Positions 17,816 through 51,092 are shown, numbered from the stretch's first letter. The stretch is DNA of 51,231 nucleotides from a virus (IMGVR_UViG_3300049482_000044:64001-115231), one strand, 5' to 3'. Translations and numbers: made by a program. Notes: a model not told the origin generated them from the sequence alone.

Positions 17816-18760
17816 ATGAAACTACAGGACTATACAAAGCGAACCACTGGCGCTCCCGCTACAGGAACCTACAGCGTTGGTGATGAAATTATTGATTCGG
17901 CGGGCGCGATTTATCGATGTGTGACTGCTGGCACTCCAGGAGTCTGGTTGTCGCTAGTCGTTGGTGGAGGCATTACTATTTACGCATCCGGAATCCCAAG
18001 CAATGTGGCTGGAAATAATGGCGATACGTATGTAAATACTGCTAACGGCTTTATATATGGACCAAAAGCGGCGGGCGCGTGGCCTACCACACCAAGGCTT
18101 AATACATCTCAGGTTGGGTCCACTGGGGCAGTACCACTAGTCACCGGCATGTCATCATCTAATGGGATTAATCGCTTCGCTATTGCATCCGGATCCACTA
18201 ACGGACAGGCGCTCCCAGTTGCTTCTACCAATGGAAACAGCGATGCTTCTATAGTCTGGAATACAACAGCAGCAGGTTGGCGTCGCAATACAGCGATTAC
18301 TGCTTATGCCTATTATGCGCCAACAGGATACGACGCGTTTAATTATTCTATTTATGCTAGTTATACTTCTGCAAAAGCAACTATAGCCGAACTGCCCACC
18401 GGCTCAGATACTATGGCCCTAAGCGCCGGAGGGTTTTATGGCTTACCAGCCTATCCGATGATTACCGTGTCTAATACTGGAGCGGCGACGATTAACATTA
18501 ATAATGGTTATGGGTATTATATTACTGGTAGTTCGGGCACCGTCCTTGCGGTTAATGATAAAATTTCTATTTCTCGCAATAATGATGAGGTTCAAGTTAT
18601 AGCCTATTCTACCGCCACGAGCCCAAAAATATTTTGGCGCGGGGGTTGGGCGGGCGACCCAGACCCATATGTTCAATGTCCGGCTTTTGCATTCGCCTTC
18701 TCGGGAACTTCTGGCGTACAGGGGGCATGGGCTTCCCCTTCGATTCAGTGGAAAATATAA
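17816..18760 (+). CDS. Putative fibre/receptor-binding protein
   Basis: 314 aa; CVTAGTPGVW and G.PSN..G..GDTYVNT....YGPK modules shared with neighbouring genes. Confidence 0.7.
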   Translation: MKLQDYTKRTTGAPATGTYSVGDEIIDSAGAIYRCVTAGTPGVWLSLVVGGGITIYASGIPSNVAGNNGDTYVNTANGFIYGPKAAGAWPTTPRLNTSQVGSTGAVPLVTGMSSSNGINRFAIASGSTNGQALPVASTNGNSDASIVWNTTAAGWRRNTAITAYAYYAPTGYDAFNYSIYASYTSAKATIAELPTGSDTMALSAGGFYGLPAYPMITVSNTGAATININNGYGYYITGSSGTVLAVNDKISISRNNDEVQVIAYSTATSPKIFWRGGWAGDPDPYVQCPAFAFAFSGTSGVQGAWASPSIQWKI

Positions 18761-19146
18761 AATATCTTGATATAGGAACTGGCCGTGGCGAGCATTTAAA
18801 AAAAATGATACAAAAATATGGTCAGAGTAATATAGTGTCTGTAGACACCGACCTACCGTGTGTAAACTGGGCCAAAAGATTGTATCCTGATGTTACTTAT
18901 GTACATGGAGACTGGAGCCTTGCGTTGCATTATGGACCTTTTGAATATGCCCATGTTGATCATTTTGGCAATAGGCTAGAAGCAACCAGAATTCTTATGG
19001 ATTTAAACACTAATATTATAGAGGTCGATGATATGGATATTATGACAACAGAATGGTCAGAAAAAATTCCGCAACTCGCAAAAGAATACGGATACAGTTA
19101 TACTAATAATGGAAAGAAAGCCTATATGGTGAAGGAGGATATATGA
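18748..19146 (+). CDS. Class I SAM-dependent methyltransferase
   Basis: Motif I LDIGTGRG, acidic VSVD at the end of beta2, VHGD; start probably GTG 18748 (ATG 18727 possible) rather than 18634. Confidence 0.8.
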   Translation: MENIKYLDIGTGRGEHLKKMIQKYGQSNIVSVDTDLPCVNWAKRLYPDVTYVHGDWSLALHYGPFEYAHVDHFGNRLEATRILMDLNTNIIEVDDMDIMTTEWSEKIPQLAKEYGYSYTNNGKKAYMVKEDI

Positions 19147-19466
19147 GTTACGCAAGAATGATCGAGTTGTCCCGAGACGTTAATTTTAGGTCTCTAGTTC
19201 AGGCAGCAATCACAGACAAGGCTCTAGCAGTAATGTCTGAGCCAGAGCCAGAAGTTATGCCGTCCGACCGGGCGACTAAGCGTGGAATTCTAGCGGGATA
19301 TGTTCTCGCCGCCCCCGCAAACGAAGTGGAAAGATTTTCTATAGCCGTTGCCGTTAGGACGCCAGAGACAGCAACATCACAGGAACTCCCATCCGATTCC
19401 GATATTGCAGACATACTAAATGATATTTGGAATAGTGTTGCCGGTGTCAAGGAATGGGACATCTGA
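19143..19466 (+). CDS. Small conserved phage protein (possible fibre assembly chaperone)
   Basis: MSY...FRSLVQAA...SDSDIADILNDIWNSVAG pattern seen after fibre genes in actinophages (recall). Confidence 0.65.
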   Translation: MSYARMIELSRDVNFRSLVQAAITDKALAVMSEPEPEVMPSDRATKRGILAGYVLAAPANEVERFSIAVAVRTPETATSQELPSDSDIADILNDIWNSVAGVKEWDI

Positions 19467-19472
19467 TATAAT
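19464..19472 (+). promoter_or_regulatory. Extended -10 promoter (TGnTATAAT) for the candidate sRNA
   Basis: TGATATAAT, perfect consensus, overlapping the upstream stop codon. Confidence 0.55.
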
Positions 19473-19475
19473 CAT

Positions 19476-19590
19476 ACTACGGGTTCGCGGTTGTCGCCGC
19501 TAAGTCGTTACAGGGAATGTGCAGGATTTCGCTGCATAGCCTTAGGATGGTAGTTACTGCACGGACCCGGCTTCGGTCGGGTCTGTTGCA
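19476..19590 (+). ncRNA. Candidate structured small RNA (family not recognised)
   Basis: Non-coding gap with nested stems 19476-80/19550-54, 19481-85/19538-42, 19487-90/19497-500 and 19520-24/19532-36, then a UUCG hairpin; flanked by a promoter and terminator. Confidence 0.5.
19561..19586 (+). terminator. Intrinsic terminator-like hairpin
   Basis: ACGGACCCGGC-TTCG-GTCGGGTCTGT, 11 bp including G-U pairs, cUUCGg loop. Confidence 0.75.
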
Positions 19591-19613
19591 TTTCCGGCCC
19601 AAAATGCTATACT
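19586..19613 (+). promoter_or_regulatory. Sigma70-like promoter
   Basis: TTGCAT-16 nt-TATACT with TG extension; ATG 9 nt downstream with no SD. Confidence 0.65.
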
Positions 19614-19622
19614 TTTAATACA

Positions 19623-22016
19623 ATGTATCGTGAGCATGTTCTAGCAACCCGGCCATATAGTTACTTCACCTTAGACGGATCTACAGGTAATGTGGACACC
19701 CTCGGTAGGTCAACAAGCCTGACTGGTGTCACGGCCACCAACCTGGGCGCAGTTCCTCCTCGCTGGTATCAACCGTTAGTTCCTGGGTATACCGCTTCTG
19801 AACTATCATCAGCATCAACGACCCCGACCAAGCCTTTCGGCAAGGTGGGCTACGAATCAAAGGCGTTCAGCATCGACTTCTGGTTTGATCTGCATACTGT
19901 TATCAACACATCATCATACACAGTGAGCACTACATTATTTAGCCAGGGCGGGCAGAATCTAGTAATCGCTGATCCGAAAAACCTATATGTTCAGTTCACC
20001 GCCTCTGATCCGACTAAGACAATAGTTCTGCAGTACCAGATAGAGGATTCCTGGTCCGCCAAGCATATCTGTATCTCCTGGGGCGGGACCATTGCAGCCC
20101 TGTTCGTAAACGGAGAACTAGTAGATGCCGTCCCAGTGCCTACTGGATTCGTATTCGCTAATAGCACGTCTGCTATGGTATTCACCGCACCCGCCGCTGG
20201 GCATATTGCCATTTACGACCGTCTGCAGACACAGAATGAACTTATAGACAAGTACAATAGTATTTCAGATCTTACCTCTCACTCCAACTCGGTAGAGCGT
20301 GACGGAGGGGAACTATTTGAGATGTGGTTGACGCCAGAGAAATATACTGATATACCTCTGACGTATGATCTGGCTGGGTCTGGGTCTATCGGTGCAAACA
20401 TAAATACTGATGGACTATATTCGCCCGTCGTAGTTAACAAGGCGGTGCTATCGGGCGGGTCTCTGACTCAGGATGGAGCCGGAACAACTATCTCGTCCCA
20501 GTATATTTTCATAGATGCCTATAATTATCTATCATCATCATCATGGGTTATCTCCATCGAGACCAACGACGACAACACCCGCGCGGGAAATGAATATCTA
20601 TTTACTATATACAACCCACGCGAGGCGCTAGAGTTCTATGTCACGTCCGGGAACGTACTGACGGTAAAGAAGATAAACTTCAACGCCGATGGAACTACCA
20701 CGTCGACAACATATGCCTATGATACCGTGGTAACAACCACCGCCCGCAAGTTCGTCTTTGTCATGGATAATAACTATCTGTACGCAAAGACCGGTGCTTC
20801 GTCTACTGTACTGAATACAATTTCGGCGGTGGATAATACATATATACCTATGAGTGTTATGTCGGGAACCAAGATCCTTATCGGAACATCGGCTGACCTA
20901 ACTGGCGTTGCTGTGCCGAAGATCCTGAATTTCTACACCCACCGCGCGAAGTTGTCAGCAACAATAACAGGTGGCAGTTATGACTTCTATCAGAACCAGT
21001 ATTACTCATCTGGATACTGGCCTCTTACCAGTTCCTACGGCCTGCGCGGGCAATCAGCGCAGAGTCTAGTTTCTGCTCCATATGTTTCTACATCAAGCAC
21101 AATCCAGTCGGCCTTCCTAAAGAGCGAGAAAACATATGGAACTGATATCACTTTCACATCGAGCGTGGGCAACTTCACCACGCGGGAGCAAGTGGCGTCT
21201 GTACCAACCGCCACCATCCCGTTTGGGTCGGTAGCAGGAGCAGGATTCGCTCGTCAGATAACATCAATGATTGTAGACCAGCAGACTGCCAATAACAGGG
21301 TTGACACACAGGCACCGGGCATTAAGTCGTCTACCCTGCGTCTATTCCATACACTGCGTAGCAATTCGACTAATTCCGCATCTTACGTGGCATTTACAGG
21401 CGCTGGCGCATGCTGGATGAATAATGGTCCGTCAACTACTATGAATCACGACAGATATGCTGGAGTATTTTTCCAGTCAGGCTCAGTGGGTGGGCCCGTA
21501 GTGAATCCGCTTGTAGACGGCTCAACAATCAGATATACATATAGGAGTTTCGAGTTCTTAGTATATTGCCAGTCGGCTGCTACCAACACGGGTCACATCG
21601 TCAGTTTCTACGACGGCACGACAGAATACTACTTTAGGATATCTGGCAATTCATGGCAGACAAACTTCAGTAATGTGAAGATAAACGGTCAGGCTATCGC
21701 TGGACAGTCGGCTCAATACCTGCTAGATAATTGGGTTCACGTCTATGTCGAAATCCCATCGACCATTCAAGACCGCCAGGTTTACGTCGGCAAGTCATAC
21801 AATGGGGCTACCTATGTGAACGGGGTGGGTGTGAAGAACTTTGCAACTTATGATCGAGTGCTTACAGCCGCTGAAATAGACGAGCACTACCAATGCTTCA
21901 CTGGAAGATATAGTAAATCTTTAGCCGTGGTAGATACTATCTCACTGGCAGAAAATGCTGTCGTAAGCATGTATTCTGTAGCCTGGTTCAGCAACATTGT
22001 TCCAGGATCATCATAA
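19623..22016 (+). CDS. Virion protein with LamG/concanavalin A-like domains
   Basis: YREHVLATRPYSYFTLD start; FSIDFWF, HICISW...LFVNG and V.NFATYDRVLTAAEIDEHY LamG-type motifs at both ends. Confidence 0.75.
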   Translation: MYREHVLATRPYSYFTLDGSTGNVDTLGRSTSLTGVTATNLGAVPPRWYQPLVPGYTASELSSASTTPTKPFGKVGYESKAFSIDFWFDLHTVINTSSYTVSTTLFSQGGQNLVIADPKNLYVQFTASDPTKTIVLQYQIEDSWSAKHICISWGGTIAALFVNGELVDAVPVPTGFVFANSTSAMVFTAPAAGHIAIYDRLQTQNELIDKYNSISDLTSHSNSVERDGGELFEMWLTPEKYTDIPLTYDLAGSGSIGANINTDGLYSPVVVNKAVLSGGSLTQDGAGTTISSQYIFIDAYNYLSSSSWVISIETNDDNTRAGNEYLFTIYNPREALEFYVTSGNVLTVKKINFNADGTTTSTTYAYDTVVTTTARKFVFVMDNNYLYAKTGASSTVLNTISAVDNTYIPMSVMSGTKILIGTSADLTGVAVPKILNFYTHRAKLSATITGGSYDFYQNQYYSSGYWPLTSSYGLRGQSAQSLVSAPYVSTSSTIQSAFLKSEKTYGTDITFTSSVGNFTTREQVASVPTATIPFGSVAGAGFARQITSMIVDQQTANNRVDTQAPGIKSSTLRLFHTLRSNSTNSASYVAFTGAGACWMNNGPSTTMNHDRYAGVFFQSGSVGGPVVNPLVDGSTIRYTYRSFEFLVYCQSAATNTGHIVSFYDGTTEYYFRISGNSWQTNFSNVKINGQAIAGQSAQYLLDNWVHVYVEIPSTIQDRQVYVGKSYNGATYVNGVGVKNFATYDRVLTAAEIDEHYQCFTGRYSKSLAVVDTISLAENAVVSMYSVAWFSNIVPGSS

Positions 22017-26304: not shown

Positions 26305-26330
26305 AGGGCCGGGGCTTTTGCCCCGGTCCT
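26305..26330 (+). terminator. Intrinsic terminator after the capsid gene
   Basis: AGGGCCGGGGC-TTTT-GCCCCGGTCCT followed by TTGCATTT. Confidence 0.8.
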
Positions 26331-26358
26331 TTGCATTTGAACTTACAGATGCTATAAT
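26331..26358 (+). promoter_or_regulatory. Sigma70-like promoter
   Basis: TTGCAT-16 nt-TATAAT with TG extension, directly after the terminator. Confidence 0.7.
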
Positions 26359-30243: not shown

Positions 30244-30269
30244 GCCCGCCCCTTCGGAGGCGGGCTTTT
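30244..30269 (+). terminator. Intrinsic terminator after the major tail gene
   Basis: GCCCGCCCC-TTCG-GAGGCGGGC followed by TTTT. Confidence 0.85.
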
Positions 30270-30272
30270 GCT

Positions 30273-30301
30273 TTGCCTTTTACGACTTCTTTTGTTACAA
30301 T
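30273..30301 (+). promoter_or_regulatory. Sigma70-like promoter
   Basis: TTGCCT-17 nt-TACAAT with TG extension. Confidence 0.65.
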
Positions 30302-43453: not shown

Positions 43454-43482
43454 TCGACTTTTCTTGATGGGATTGATATAAT
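43454..43482 (+). promoter_or_regulatory. Sigma70-like promoter, probably leaderless
   Basis: TCGACT-17 nt-TATAAT with TG extension; ATG 6 nt after the -10. Confidence 0.6.
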
Positions 43483-43488
43483 CAAAAG

Positions 43489-44421
43489 ATGCAAGGAACA
43501 TACGTACTTAGTCAAAACGGTGTAGAACTCGCCCGCTCAACCAATATCATTACCACAGAGGGTAAGAAGATTATTGCTTCCTATCTGGCCGGTATTGCTC
43601 CTAGTTGGGCTGGTGCGATGGCTATTGGTACTGGAACCACCGCCGCAGTTGTTGGAGACACGCAACTCGCCCTAGAATTCGCAAGGCAGGATGTAACCAG
43701 CAAAGCCGTCCTCATCGGTGGTGGTACTGCTGGTGCTCACCGAATTATTGCCAAGACTACAGTCCCGCAGGAAATCGCCGGTAACGTGTATGAATTAGGC
43801 ATCTATTCACTATCGACTGGTGTATCGTCGGCAAGCCCAAGTAAGGTGCTCGTCGGTATGGCTGCGTCTGGTGATTGGGAGGTCTACAGCGGTGGCAACT
43901 GGATTGCCTCAGCACAGGTACCAGAAACCACATACTATCGTGCGGGCGTAGATTCGGTAACACTGGCAACCTCGGCGGCGACGACAAAATATCGCTACAA
44001 TCTAGGTTCCGCTGATTTCAGCATGTACGGTGGACTTGACAAGATCAGTTTTGGTGCTTATTATACGGTTGGCACACTTACCTCCGTTGCTCTTAAGTTC
44101 TATTCAGACGACTCAAACTACTATTCATACACACCTACTCTCGCCACCCTGATAGGTGGAGCGACAAATACTTATACAACCAGTTCATTTACTAAGTCAT
44201 CGTGGGCGGCGACCGGGTCGCCGTCCTGGTCGAATATAACAAGCATTGGTGTTGATGTAGCGAGCGCCGGGTCGGCAACAGCCCACATCGACCTGATCAG
44301 AATTGATGACTCAGACAATTCAGACCCGAACTACGCACTGGTCAGTCGCAGCATTCTAGTTGCGCCACAGACCAAGGCGGCGGGGTCTGAAATGGATATT
44401 GAATACTTCTTGGACTACTAA
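43489..44421 (+). CDS. Minor tail/baseplate-like protein
   Basis: NIITTEGKKIIASYLAG...MAIGTG....D..L..EFAR...YELGIY...K..GSEMDIEY. Confidence 0.75.
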   Translation: MQGTYVLSQNGVELARSTNIITTEGKKIIASYLAGIAPSWAGAMAIGTGTTAAVVGDTQLALEFARQDVTSKAVLIGGGTAGAHRIIAKTTVPQEIAGNVYELGIYSLSTGVSSASPSKVLVGMAASGDWEVYSGGNWIASAQVPETTYYRAGVDSVTLATSAATTKYRYNLGSADFSMYGGLDKISFGAYYTVGTLTSVALKFYSDDSNYYSYTPTLATLIGGATNTYTTSSFTKSSWAATGSPSWSNITSIGVDVASAGSATAHIDLIRIDDSDNSDPNYALVSRSILVAPQTKAAGSEMDIEYFLDY

Positions 44422-49585: not shown

Positions 49586-49607
49586 TAGAAACTAGGGATG
49601 GTATAAT
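49579..49607 (+). promoter_or_regulatory. Sigma70-like promoter, probably leaderless
   Basis: TTGGTA-17 nt-TATAAT with TG extension; ATG 6 nt after the -10. Confidence 0.6.
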
Positions 49608-49613
49608 TCTAAT

Positions 49614-51092
49614 ATGTCAGTGAAAATCAAAGACCTTGTAATCCTGTCAACTATGACCCTCGCGGGCAACAACGTTCTCAGTACCTCCGACCGAGGTGCG
49701 GCTGGTGGCGTTGCAAGTCTTGACGGTTCTACACTCGTTCCTATTGCACAGATTCCTACAGGAACCACAGGAACTACAGTATCGCTAGGTAACCACACAC
49801 ACGCGGGTGGTGGAACAAACTACCAGACCGTACAGGATGCGGGTTCTGCCATGACCACTCGCCCGGTCCTGAACTTTGATGACACATCACTTATCACATT
49901 CACCGCCACTGACAACGCGGGGGCGACTCGAACTGACATCACCGCCACGCTTGTAACTAACCCTACAGTTGCTGGTAACCTGACAGTAACGGGAAACCTT
50001 ATCGTTAATGGTACTACCCAAACAGTCAATTCTACTACCGTAACAATTGACGACCCTGTCTTCACAATTGGTGGAGATACCGCGCCGGTGGCGGACGACA
50101 ACAAGGACCGTGGAATTGAGTACCGTTGGCACAACGGATCGGTAGCGAAAATAGGATACTTCGGATTTGATGACTCTACCGGATTCTTTACATTCATCCC
50201 CGACGCCACTAACACATCTGAAGTGTTCTCAGGAACACTAGGTGTTATCGACGCTACTAGAATCACTGGCTCGGCGGCGAGCCTGACAACCGCCCGGACC
50301 ATTAATGGTACAAACTTCGATGGTACTGGAAACATCACTATCACGGCAAATACAACAAACGCACTGACTATTGGTACTGGTCTTTCTGGAACATCATTCA
50401 ACGGCTCTGGCGCTGTAACTGTTGCTCTTGCCTCAGCATACGGTGATACAACCAACCCATATGCATCAAAGACCGCGAACTTTATTCTAGCCGCCCCATC
50501 CGGATCTGCCGGTGTTCCAGTATTCCGTGCGATGACCTCAGTAGACGTTCCTACTCTTAACCAGTCAACCACCGGCTCAGCGGCAACACTTACAACCGCT
50601 CGCACTATTGCCATTACAGGTCGAGTAACTGGTACAGCCACATCTTTTGATGGATCTGCTAACATTTCTATAGCCACAACCGCGCTGACACCAACAGAAA
50701 CAGAAATTACTACTGCCCTGGCGAACGGTTTTGGAAACGTTGTTTCATTCACGCCGGGTACTATTTCGCTAACTACCTCATACGCCTCGGTGACCGGTAT
50801 TGCTGGAACGGCGCTACCAACTGGAACCTATGAATTCCAGATTAAGTTCACTGACTCCACAAACACAATCGTATATTCTGGTATTATGTCATGGTACGGA
50901 GTAGCAGATATCGGCACCACCGGAAACAGCGAGATCCTAATGCACCAGTCAGGTAAGACTCCCGGTTCGGCAGTTCTTTACGCGCGGGTGCTACATGATC
51001 TTACCGGTACGACAACAAGGTTCCAGGTAGCAGGGTCAACGACTATGACTATGACTAGCCCGACCTTCCGCTTCCGTCGAATCTTCGACTAA
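49614..51092 (+). CDS. Tail fibre protein
   Basis: 492 aa, Thr/Gly-rich; GTTQTVNSTTVTIDDPVF...DDNKDRGIE module; SA.TLTTARTI..FDG..NI repeats; C-terminal tip domain. Confidence 0.8.
   Translation: MSVKIKDLVILSTMTLAGNNVLSTSDRGAAGGVASLDGSTLVPIAQIPTGTTGTTVSLGNHTHAGGGTNYQTVQDAGSAMTTRPVLNFDDTSLITFTATDNAGATRTDITATLVTNPTVAGNLTVTGNLIVNGTTQTVNSTTVTIDDPVFTIGGDTAPVADDNKDRGIEYRWHNGSVAKIGYFGFDDSTGFFTFIPDATNTSEVFSGTLGVIDATRITGSAASLTTARTINGTNFDGTGNITITANTTNALTIGTGLSGTSFNGSGAVTVALASAYGDTTNPYASKTANFILAAPSGSAGVPVFRAMTSVDVPTLNQSTTGSAATLTTARTIAITGRVTGTATSFDGSANISIATTALTPTETEITTALANGFGNVVSFTPGTISLTTSYASVTGIAGTALPTGTYEFQIKFTDSTNTIVYSGIMSWYGVADIGTTGNSEILMHQSGKTPGSAVLYARVLHDLTGTTTRFQVAGSTTMTMTSPTFRFRRIFD

Follow-up and report, generated by a model that had tools for sequence, protein, structure and literature searches.

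A predicted small RNA of actinobacterial phages resembles an antisense copy of the helix 69 to 72 region of 23S rRNA

Results

A predicted phage small RNA gene antisense to 23S rRNA

We analysed a 51,231-nucleotide (nt) stretch of DNA (IMGVR_UViG_3300049482_000044:64001-115231; hereafter "the window"), which is the right 51 kb of a complete phage genome in IMG/VR (115,231 base pairs (bp), direct terminal repeats, 49.5% GC), and focused on a 156-nt gap (19467-19622) between a 107-codon open reading frame (ORF) and a 797-codon ORF with a LamG domain. Judging from its sequence signals, this gap holds a predicted, unannotated stand-alone gene for a small RNA, served by a sigma-70-type extended -10 promoter and an intrinsic terminator of its own, and the body of the putative RNA is a diverged antisense copy of nt 1910-2009 of 23S ribosomal RNA (rRNA) of the Actinomycetota type. 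A preliminary description of this DNA had recognised the RNA but missed this antisense identity, which tells what the RNA probably is and supplies a candidate target. The reading that we prefer—one that we regard as evenly balanced—is that the phage RNA would act in trans as an antisense, pairing with the 23S rRNA of the host while 50S subunits are free or still being assembled. The elements of the unit, with 23S positions in E. coli numbering (checked on an annotated rrl), are as follows:

19444-19472, + strand: promoter P1, with a weak -35 (GTGTCA), a 17-nt spacer and the extended -10 TGATATAAT (19464-19472); consensus scan 10/12, with TG
19479-19592, + strand: predicted small RNA of ~114 nt, from A19479 (the seventh nt past the -10) to the U-run behind the terminator
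19479-19508, + strand: stem-loop 1 (SL1), starting at +1 in the minimum free energy (MFE) fold
19480-19493, + strand: 5' strand and loop of SL1, complement of 23S 1997-2010
19502-19511, + strand: 3' strand of SL1, AAGUCGUUAC, complement of 23S 1976-1985; conserved block
19512-19543, + strand: stem-loop 2 (SL2), from folding and the 23S alignment, with GUGCAG (19519-19524) directly joined to GAUUUCGCU (19525-19533)
Conserved block (UUC)GUGCAG, + strand: complement of 23S 1963-1971 (GUGCAG, 19519-19524, matching 1963-1968)
Conserved block GAAUUUCGC, + strand: complement of 23S 1933-1941 (GAUUUCGCU, 19525-19533, matching ~1932-1941)
Conserved block CCUUAGGAUGG, + strand: complement of 23S 1920-1930
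Conserved block AGUUAC, + strand: complement of 23S 1910-1915
19540-19557, + strand: single-stranded tail CCUUAGGAUGGUAGUUAC, mean unpaired probability 0.6-0.9
19558-19593, + strand: intrinsic terminator (GC stem, UUCG loop, UGCA/UGCA extension, then UUU), placed by folding and by comparison with relatives
19586-19613, + strand: promoter P2, with -35 TTGCAT (19586-19591), 16 nt, TATACT (19608-19613) and TG at 19605-6, forming the extended -10 TGCTATACT; kept in relatives

When aligned with Microbacterium-type 23S, positions 19480-19558 (+2 to +80) follow the reverse complement of nt 1910-2009 in colinear order and agree with it at 63 of 71 aligned bases. The antisense span takes in the loop and 3' strand of helix 69, helix 70, and the sequence up to about helix 72; its largest alignment gap corresponds to 23S nt ~1941-1961, where the helix 71 hairpin is cleanly deleted at a junction common to the other phage loci with a unit of this type ("window-type" loci). 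For ten members of the family, alignment to antisense 23S gave z = 2.6 to 11.8 relative to shuffles, while reverse-complement controls stayed at shuffle level. The predicted duplex of the whole body with actinobacterial 23S reaches -85 to -90 kcal/mol; with E. coli 23S the value is -63, and shuffled controls lie at -46 +/- 4.5. A search of 185,579 bacterial genomes with the core pattern (GTGCAG ... CCTTAGGATGG ... AGTTAC) returned two matches, both in 23S rRNA genes of Actinomycetota and, by the strand assigned with Rfam, both opposite to the rRNA.

The tail is the most conserved block of the family and corresponds to the complement of 23S 1910-1915 plus 1919-1930, that is, the helix 69 loop, its 3' strand and the junction. 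With Microbacterium-type 23S (1909-1931), it is predicted to form a 20-bp duplex of -29.9 kcal/mol in which A1916-U1917-A1918 are bulged, whereas the best site for it in the phage's own genome reaches -24.8 kcal/mol. The complementary core (CCUUAGGAUGG...AGUUAC) also appears to be exposed: it is unpaired with a probability of 0.6-0.9 in the RNA's own fold in the window and is likewise unpaired in the MFE folds of four relatives (L004, L005, L010, and L027).

When true antisense 23S was compared with the phage collection by BLAST, every match was contamination of a phage record by host rRNA. A BLAST comparison of the phage genome with rrn loci of actinobacteria failed to recover the known element itself, such that further anti-rRNA segments may exist. 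Full-text literature searches found no published description of a phage RNA complementary to 23S rRNA and turned up no transcriptome paper on these phages. The predicted RNA is single-copy in the 115-kb genome.

Two records deserve separate mention. In L349:2340-2520 (Microbispora triticiradicis scaffold15), a 23S gene carries a ~60-nt segment of helix 69-70 three times in tandem together with a shortened helix 71; the repeat, probably an assembly artefact, allowed the gap-limited pattern to match this record. One phage member (L297:1824-1937) retains a GC hairpin (GCCGGGGUCACAGCCGGU) where others delete the complement of helix 71 and has a longer antisense 23S match, and may be a less reduced form.

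An independent transcription unit with a promoter on either side

P1 and the terminator enclose the predicted RNA, whose ends we placed from the positions of these two signals; the same signals suggest that it is expressed. TGATATAAT overlaps the stop codon of the upstream ORF, and a -10-like hexamer stands at the P1-equivalent place in 19 of 19 window-type loci, with several relatives showing a full consensus P1 (for example, the perfect TTGACA-17-TATAAT of L027). The GC hairpin with its UUCG loop occupies 19563-19583 and is lengthened by UGCA/UGCA to 19558-19590; its stem sequence is different in every relative or lineage with pairing retained, and distant members have clear U-tracts. The -35 of P2 overlaps the 3' arm and U-run of this terminator. 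P2 is conserved in all 18 window-type units in which it was located, always with the terminator U-tract over its -35, and its -10 lies 6-9 nt before the downstream ATG in all relatives (9 nt in the window). Because this distance is so short, the downstream structural messenger RNA (mRNA) would be effectively leaderless, and since the structural gene would thus have its own leaderless mRNA from P2, the upstream RNA is probably a separate transcript.

The motifs named in the preliminary description—the extended -10, the stems, the GC hairpin with a UUCG loop, and the second promoter—all lie where it had placed them. Its central proposal, that a structured RNA of about 110 nt is transcribed independently and does not serve the downstream gene as a leader, is supported by the arrangement of the sequence: the -10 of P1 precedes SL1 by 7 nt, in the window as in the majority of the 24 relatives folded, an intrinsic terminator follows, and the downstream gene has a promoter of its own. 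The covariance model (CM) R1 matches 19469-19594 (39 bits, E 1.5e-6).

Elsewhere in the window, TATAAT stands 6 nt before the ATGs of two ORFs, 43489-44421 and 49614-51092 (at 43477-43491 and 49602-49616), making these candidate leaderless starts; such TATAAT-to-ATG patterns are not above chance (5 found vs 5.2 expected), but long ORFs begin at three of these five.

Conserved fold and covariation

Folding of the RNA proper (118 nt) proved better than in shuffled controls (z = -3.3; 1 of 200 shuffles equally good), with a weaker signal for a 162-nt version of the gap on the + strand (-52.6 kcal/mol, z = -1.9; 9 of 200) and z = -1.3 for the minus strand. Among relatives, the conserved fold consists of SL1 starting at +1, SL2, the single-stranded tail, and the terminator; the first hairpin starts between +1 and +5 in 20 of 24 folded relatives. 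The particular nested multi-stem fold of the preliminary description is not supported. All four of its stems (ACTAC/GTAGT, GGGTT/AGCCT, GCGG/CCGC, and TGCAG/CTGCA) are present as sequences, and the fold is among the window's near-optimal ones, but ACTAC/GTAGT and GGGTT/AGCCT are not kept in relatives. The outer of these, ACTAC/GTAGT, cannot be upheld for the RNA as predicted, as its 5' arm lies almost wholly inside the 7-nt spacer between the -10 and the start at A19479.

Compensatory changes are seen in the outer helix of SL1, which occurs as ACGG/UCGU, AACG/CGUU, AAUG/CAUU, ACAAC/GUUGU, ACAGCCU/GGGUUGU, ACGACCU/GGGUCGU, and ACAGCUU/GAGCUGU, and RNAalifold on nine sequences of the type found in cluster BE phages (below) gave three SL1 pairs with double changes. 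For distant members, MAFFT plus RNAalifold misaligned the 5' half and recovered the terminator alone, and alignment with CM R1 was poor, this model being too narrow for the BoomerJR and L010 copies; we therefore document covariation sequence by sequence and on the cluster BE subset. Two outcomes that the preliminary description had named as refuting it, a lack of conserved or covarying stems in relatives and a folding energy no better than that of shuffled controls, are thus not what was seen.

The absence of a match to a known tRNA, riboswitch, or ribozyme also held: ARAGORN found no transfer RNAs (tRNAs) in the gap region, no transfer-messenger RNA (tmRNA) was found, and Rfam 15 gave no match at gathering score, the best by E-value being rncO with 14.8 bits against a cut-off of 43. 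Resemblances to a ribozyme of the hammerhead or hepatitis delta virus type, to a mimic of 5S rRNA loop E or of the sarcin-ricin loop, to a Y-RNA, to an RNase P external guide, and to a Shine-Dalgarno sponge were set aside, the antisense identity with rRNA being the better explanation.

The unit recurs across distant phages

Relatives were gathered by portal-guided searches and by a scan of uncultured phages for the core motif; about 20 uncultured phages have the unit ahead of the homologous LamG-like gene. In 18 distinct window-type loci, the same unit precedes a homologous large gene, with its parts in the order seen in the window: TATAAT or TATACT as the -10 hexamer, in many cases accompanied by TG or a good -35, an AT-rich spacer that measures 7 nt in most members, a hairpin from the predicted +1, a second hairpin, the unpaired conserved stretch, a GC hairpin with U-run, a second promoter with its -35 (TTGNNN) over the U-run, and an ATG 6-9 nt past the -10. 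Among cultured phages, the nearest relatives are Streptomyces phages of cluster BE (Stanwilliamsviridae), which have genomes of ~130 kb and a portal that is 54% identical. By BLAST, all 127 Streptomyces phage records with this portal have the unit, in a gap that itself carries no annotated feature; in BoomerJR, it takes up the whole of a 147-bp gap (MK359351.1 22297-22443) that has the LysM endolysin (gp46) on one side and gp47 on the other, and gp47 aligns with the LamG protein of the window from residue 2.

The non-coding DNA of the unit is better conserved than the adjoining coding sequence, being 68-75% identical where the LamG protein is 32-34% identical, and it is retained where portals are 46-54% and downstream proteins 23-34% identical. 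Other routes to the family yielded little: BLAST of the gap against cultured phages gave no match, such that the family surfaced only via the portal; a search of IMG/VR with the LamG protein found no relatives; and two 14-base DNA patterns in IMG/VR gave mostly chance matches, L027 alone being useful.

A second architecture, a minimal version of the anti-23S core (GUGCAG-4 nt-CCUUAGGAUGGUGUAGUUACC), was observed in an independent group of phages at L331:5024-5053(-), L338:3173-3203(+), L339:5036-5065(+), and L344:8518-8547(+). It has a covarying 13-bp closing stem (CCCAUAUGCUGAC/GUCAGCAUAUGGG and variants) and no promoter of its own. At all four distinct loci, the core lies inside a phage tRNA array in the same orientation as the tRNAs, in places directly before a tRNA, with neither P2 nor a structural gene; L344 also carries a tmRNA. 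A different layout was seen at L471:371-425(+) and L472:8000-8054(+) (= L473), where CCUUAGGACCG...UAGUUACC is the complement of the non-actinobacterial CGGUCC form of helix 69 and is followed by a conserved GGCGGCUGCUGCC that has 10 nt in common with antisense 16S sequence at the 530 loop; these elements may be a related RNA.

Complementary blocks track host rRNA variants

The blocks that are constant among phages are those complementary to rRNA, and the intervening stems show covariation. GGAUGG pairs with a helix 69 variant that reads CCAUCC; among the matches listed, 80 of 80 genomes with CCAUCC are Actinomycetota. Near 23S 2000, where the rRNA has a variable hairpin, Streptomyces phages carry GCCUAUGG, the complement of the Streptomyces-only CCAUAGGC, and the window instead carries GGGUUCGCGGUUG, the complement of a Micrococcales-type variant, which points to a Micrococcales-like host for this phage of ~50% GC. 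Three further loci (L308, L336, and L335) match two other actinobacterial variants at the same site, and a GGACCG version, matching the CGGUCC form of rRNA, is present in other phages. This host-type matching is consistent with selection for pairing; repeated capture from hosts may be an alternative source.

The strand is consistent throughout. U-tracts are found on the + strand in all window-type units, with P1 located 5' of SL1. Conversely, a minus-strand product that acts as a sense mimic or decoy of 23S helix 69-72, directed against a toxin, a modification enzyme, or another factor recognising this region, seems to us very improbable. The minus strand would indeed hold rRNA-like sense sequence, and toxins that cut this region are known, such as MazF-mt6, which cuts 23S at helix 70. 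We found no conserved promoter or U-tract on the minus strand, however, and the 5' strand of helix 69 and the entire helix 71 hairpin are missing from the element, so that the rRNA helices cannot form—in particular, no sense mimic of helix 69—and the similarity is to the antisense strand only. Taken together with the position of P1, the plus-strand U-tracts, and the tRNA-array copies, which are co-oriented with the tRNAs in the antisense direction, this makes an rRNA mimic from the minus strand unlikely; the UUCCU site is not retained either, and we rejected a MazF-site decoy since this site is not conserved.

Neighbouring genes

The genes that flank the gap are:

19143-19466, + strand: 107-codon ORF, the 5' neighbour of the gap
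19623-22016, + strand: LamG-domain structural gene (797 aa; Pfam Laminin_G_3), with its ATG 9 nt 3' of the P2 -10

Downstream of the LamG gene lie genes for a small conserved protein, the portal, the head protease, and the capsid protein. The gap itself holds no conserved ORF; a 33-codon ORF at 19517-19618 is disrupted in relatives by non-triplet indels. Upstream (17816-19466), the window has ORFs of 314 aa, 170 aa (with a weak S-adenosylmethionine-methyltransferase signal), and 107 aa, for which scans of Pfam and PHROGs gave nothing, with no PHROG family assigned. These ORFs were not seen 5' of the element in L004-L006, and the gene in that position in cluster BE phages is the LysM endolysin. 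As upstream genes differ among relatives in this way, the RNA gene appears to travel with the downstream LamG gene and not with its upstream neighbour. A link to morphogenesis, suggested in the preliminary description, is not supported; the position next to the head genes is inherited synteny.

Discussion

A possible mechanism and the points against it

Binding to 23S rRNA and its consequences are what we infer from the anatomy of the transcription unit, its conservation, the antisense homology and its strand, the covarying stems, and the accessible tail. Under the preferred reading, the unpaired 3' tail CCUUAGGAUGGUAGUUAC would nucleate on the exposed loop of helix 69 and displace the short helix 69 stem, after which the duplex could grow into the SL2 loop and SL1 while helix 71 of the 23S rRNA is looped out. 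The site of action could be the free 50S subunit or, more plausibly, a late pre-50S particle with domain IV still unfolded; domain IV is the last to fold in 50S assembly intermediates. The outcome might be a 50S subunit unable to form the B2a bridge or to complete its maturation, or long duplexes open to RNase III.

A number of observations weigh against pairing with the ribosome. The ends of the RNA, and even its existence, are read from signals in the DNA. Most freshwater relatives identified by their portal (~55 loci) have no detectable copy. Complementarity has partly decayed in some lineages, as in cluster BE, where the 3' half of SL1 no longer matches rRNA, and conserved blocks inherited from a capture of ribosomal DNA (rDNA) are not by themselves proof of selected rRNA pairing. 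The subunit interface of the mature 70S ribosome hides helix 69-71, which leaves free or immature 50S subunits as the only possible targets, and because ribosomes are very abundant, a stoichiometric inhibitor would need very high expression. Disabling ribosomes also sits oddly with the heavy investment of these phages in translation, relatives carrying 43-48 tRNAs and a tmRNA as described in PMC5764925.

Alternative readings

The alternative that fares best, which we nonetheless think unlikely, is that the RNA is real and its likeness to antisense 23S is only the trace of captured rDNA, the RNA now working in some other way, for instance as a sponge, by binding a protein, or through antisense control of an mRNA. 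The loss of much complementarity outside the core in some members would fit, as would the maintenance of SL1 and SL2 as structures through compensatory change, and the tail finds duplexes of about -24 to -25 kcal/mol within the phage's own genome. On the other hand, no phage site equals the 23S site in energy or length, the blocks that remain invariant across very distant phages are exactly those complementary to rRNA, the lineage-specific variants track the rRNA of the host type, and a GGACCG version exists.

A second reading, in our view improbable, dispenses with the RNA altogether: transcription from P1, ended at the terminator that lies over the -35 of P2, would tune P2 and the late structural genes by interference, as a punctuation module in cis. 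The overlap of U-tract and P2 -35 in 18 of 18 units and the occurrence of comparable terminator-promoter modules elsewhere in the window speak for such a device. It would leave unexplained 80 nt of kept sequence, the covarying hairpins, and the rRNA complementarity; moreover, the core also occurs in tRNA arrays that have no P2 or structural gene, and the other modules lack such an RNA. These modules, at 26305-26358 and 30244-30301 (after the capsid gene and before tail genes), run from a GC hairpin terminator directly into a promoter, with a -35 (TTTGCA or TTGCCT) over the U-run followed by an extended -10, and resemble a general punctuation device of this phage; neither has an RNA of the kind seen at 19479-19592.

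Far less probable is a riboswitch-like or protein-dependent attenuator, or an antitermination leader of the lambda PR'-6S-tR' type, that decides whether transcription from P1 reads through into the head genes. The entrance to the late genes does hold a promoter, a short RNA, and a terminator, and the switch that had been proposed earlier, in which GTGCAG pairs alternatively with CTGCAC, is possible in the window. This pairing is absent in relatives, however, and there is no Rfam match. Read-through from P1 is not needed, because P2 behind the terminator gives a leaderless start, and the read-through mRNA would be without a Shine-Dalgarno sequence. Compared with the lambda-type unit, a conserved near-consensus promoter stands behind the terminator, and Pfam and PHROGs recognised no Q-like gene among the upstream ORFs. 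An HK022 put-like antiterminator was rejected on the grounds that the promoter is located behind the terminator.

Least probable of all is a non-functional remnant of host rDNA, or a target of recombination or homing at the DNA level: the sequence does derive from rDNA, and the 23S 1910-1935 region is a known hot spot for homing endonucleases and introns, but the element is kept with its promoter, terminator, and compensatory stems across phages whose proteins are 23-54% identical, and it has indels inside the putative DNA site. Purifying selection on the structure of the RNA is already indicated.

Comparison with known antisense RNAs

The nearest natural parallel is a cis-antisense RNA of Helicobacter pylori that pairs with the 23S-5S rRNA precursor, where RNase III cuts the duplex and processing is altered (Iost et al. 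2019, PMC6582327). Both that RNA and, if the predicted pairing occurs, the phage RNA are natural small antisense RNAs to an rRNA transcript. The H. pylori RNA is host-encoded, lies in cis opposite the rrn leader, and is complementary to a precursor leader that is discarded, whereas the phage RNA is phage-encoded, is proposed to act in trans, and is ~89% complementary over 71 aligned bases, with deletions, to the functional core of mature 23S (helix 69 to about helix 72).

Plasmids provide further parallels: in CopA/CopT of R1 and RNA I/RNA II of ColE1, a structured antisense RNA docks through its loops and a single-stranded tail. The phage RNA is like CopA and RNA I in its size of ~100 nt, its stem-loops plus unpaired complementary segment, its own promoter and terminator, and its structured candidate target RNA. 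CopA and RNA I, unlike the phage RNA, are cis-encoded and perfectly complementary and control replication, with no rRNA target and no host-virus conflict. Short promoter-to-terminator RNAs of phages and prophages, such as lambda OOP, P22 sar, DicF, and IpeX, base-pair with mRNAs; the phage RNA would be a transcript of the same kind, and to our knowledge none of these four has been reported to be complementary to rRNA.

In archaea and eukaryotes, box C/D and H/ACA guides are small RNAs with conserved stretches complementary to functional regions of rRNA, a likeness that extends to the predicted position of U1917, unpaired between two paired flanks. The complementarity of the phage RNA is far longer, and a box C/D or H/ACA guide was rejected, the 114-nt sequence having no RUGAUGA, CUGA, or ACA boxes; we know of no such machinery in bacteria. 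Closest in target site are peptide nucleic acids (PNAs) directed against helix 69, which bind the identical site and, as summarised in PMC7038079, inhibit E. coli growth (Kulik et al. 2017), which shows that an antisense oligomer can gain access to helix 69 inside cells and that growth stops once it binds. These synthetic PNAs are artificial 10-15-mers; the phage RNA would be natural, structured, and ~114 nt long over ~100 nt of target.

Implications

In its broadest form, our proposal is that large actinobacterial phages, and by extension the phage groups with the core in tRNA arrays, attack or reprogram the host ribosome by an antisense RNA that invades helix 69-72 on free or nascent 50S subunits, blocking the B2a bridge and late maturation or marking the rRNA for RNase III. 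Natural anti-rRNA RNAs that act in trans in a conflict between virus and host would then have their first example. We offer this larger claim tentatively and with less than even confidence. Were it true, the possible consequences would include a shutdown of the host's ribosome supply, nucleotides set free from rRNA, or translation shifted in favour of the phage's leaderless late mRNAs. That the unit always adjoins a leaderless late operon may reflect nothing more than synteny, and the idea that disabling free 50S subunits favours the modes of translation used by leaderless mRNAs is speculative.

The gene may have been overlooked since rRNA filters in RNA sequencing drop rRNA-like reads of either strand and annotators left the gap empty. 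Its presence in 127 cultured Streptomyces phages, whose hosts (for example, S. lividans and S. griseus) are tractable, places it within reach of experiment. On the most cautious reading, the unit is a widespread, conserved non-coding phage gene and a marker of host lineage, with complementary blocks that track host rRNA variants. As predicted here, the RNA is a promoter-to-terminator antisense RNA of a known type with what would be an unprecedented target. If it binds 23S rRNA, this would be a new mode of phage-host interaction, in which the most conserved inter-subunit element of the ribosome is hit by a viral RNA in place of a protein or small molecule, and a natural precedent for antisense antibacterials against helix 69; ribosome targeting, if it were shown, would be categorically new biology.

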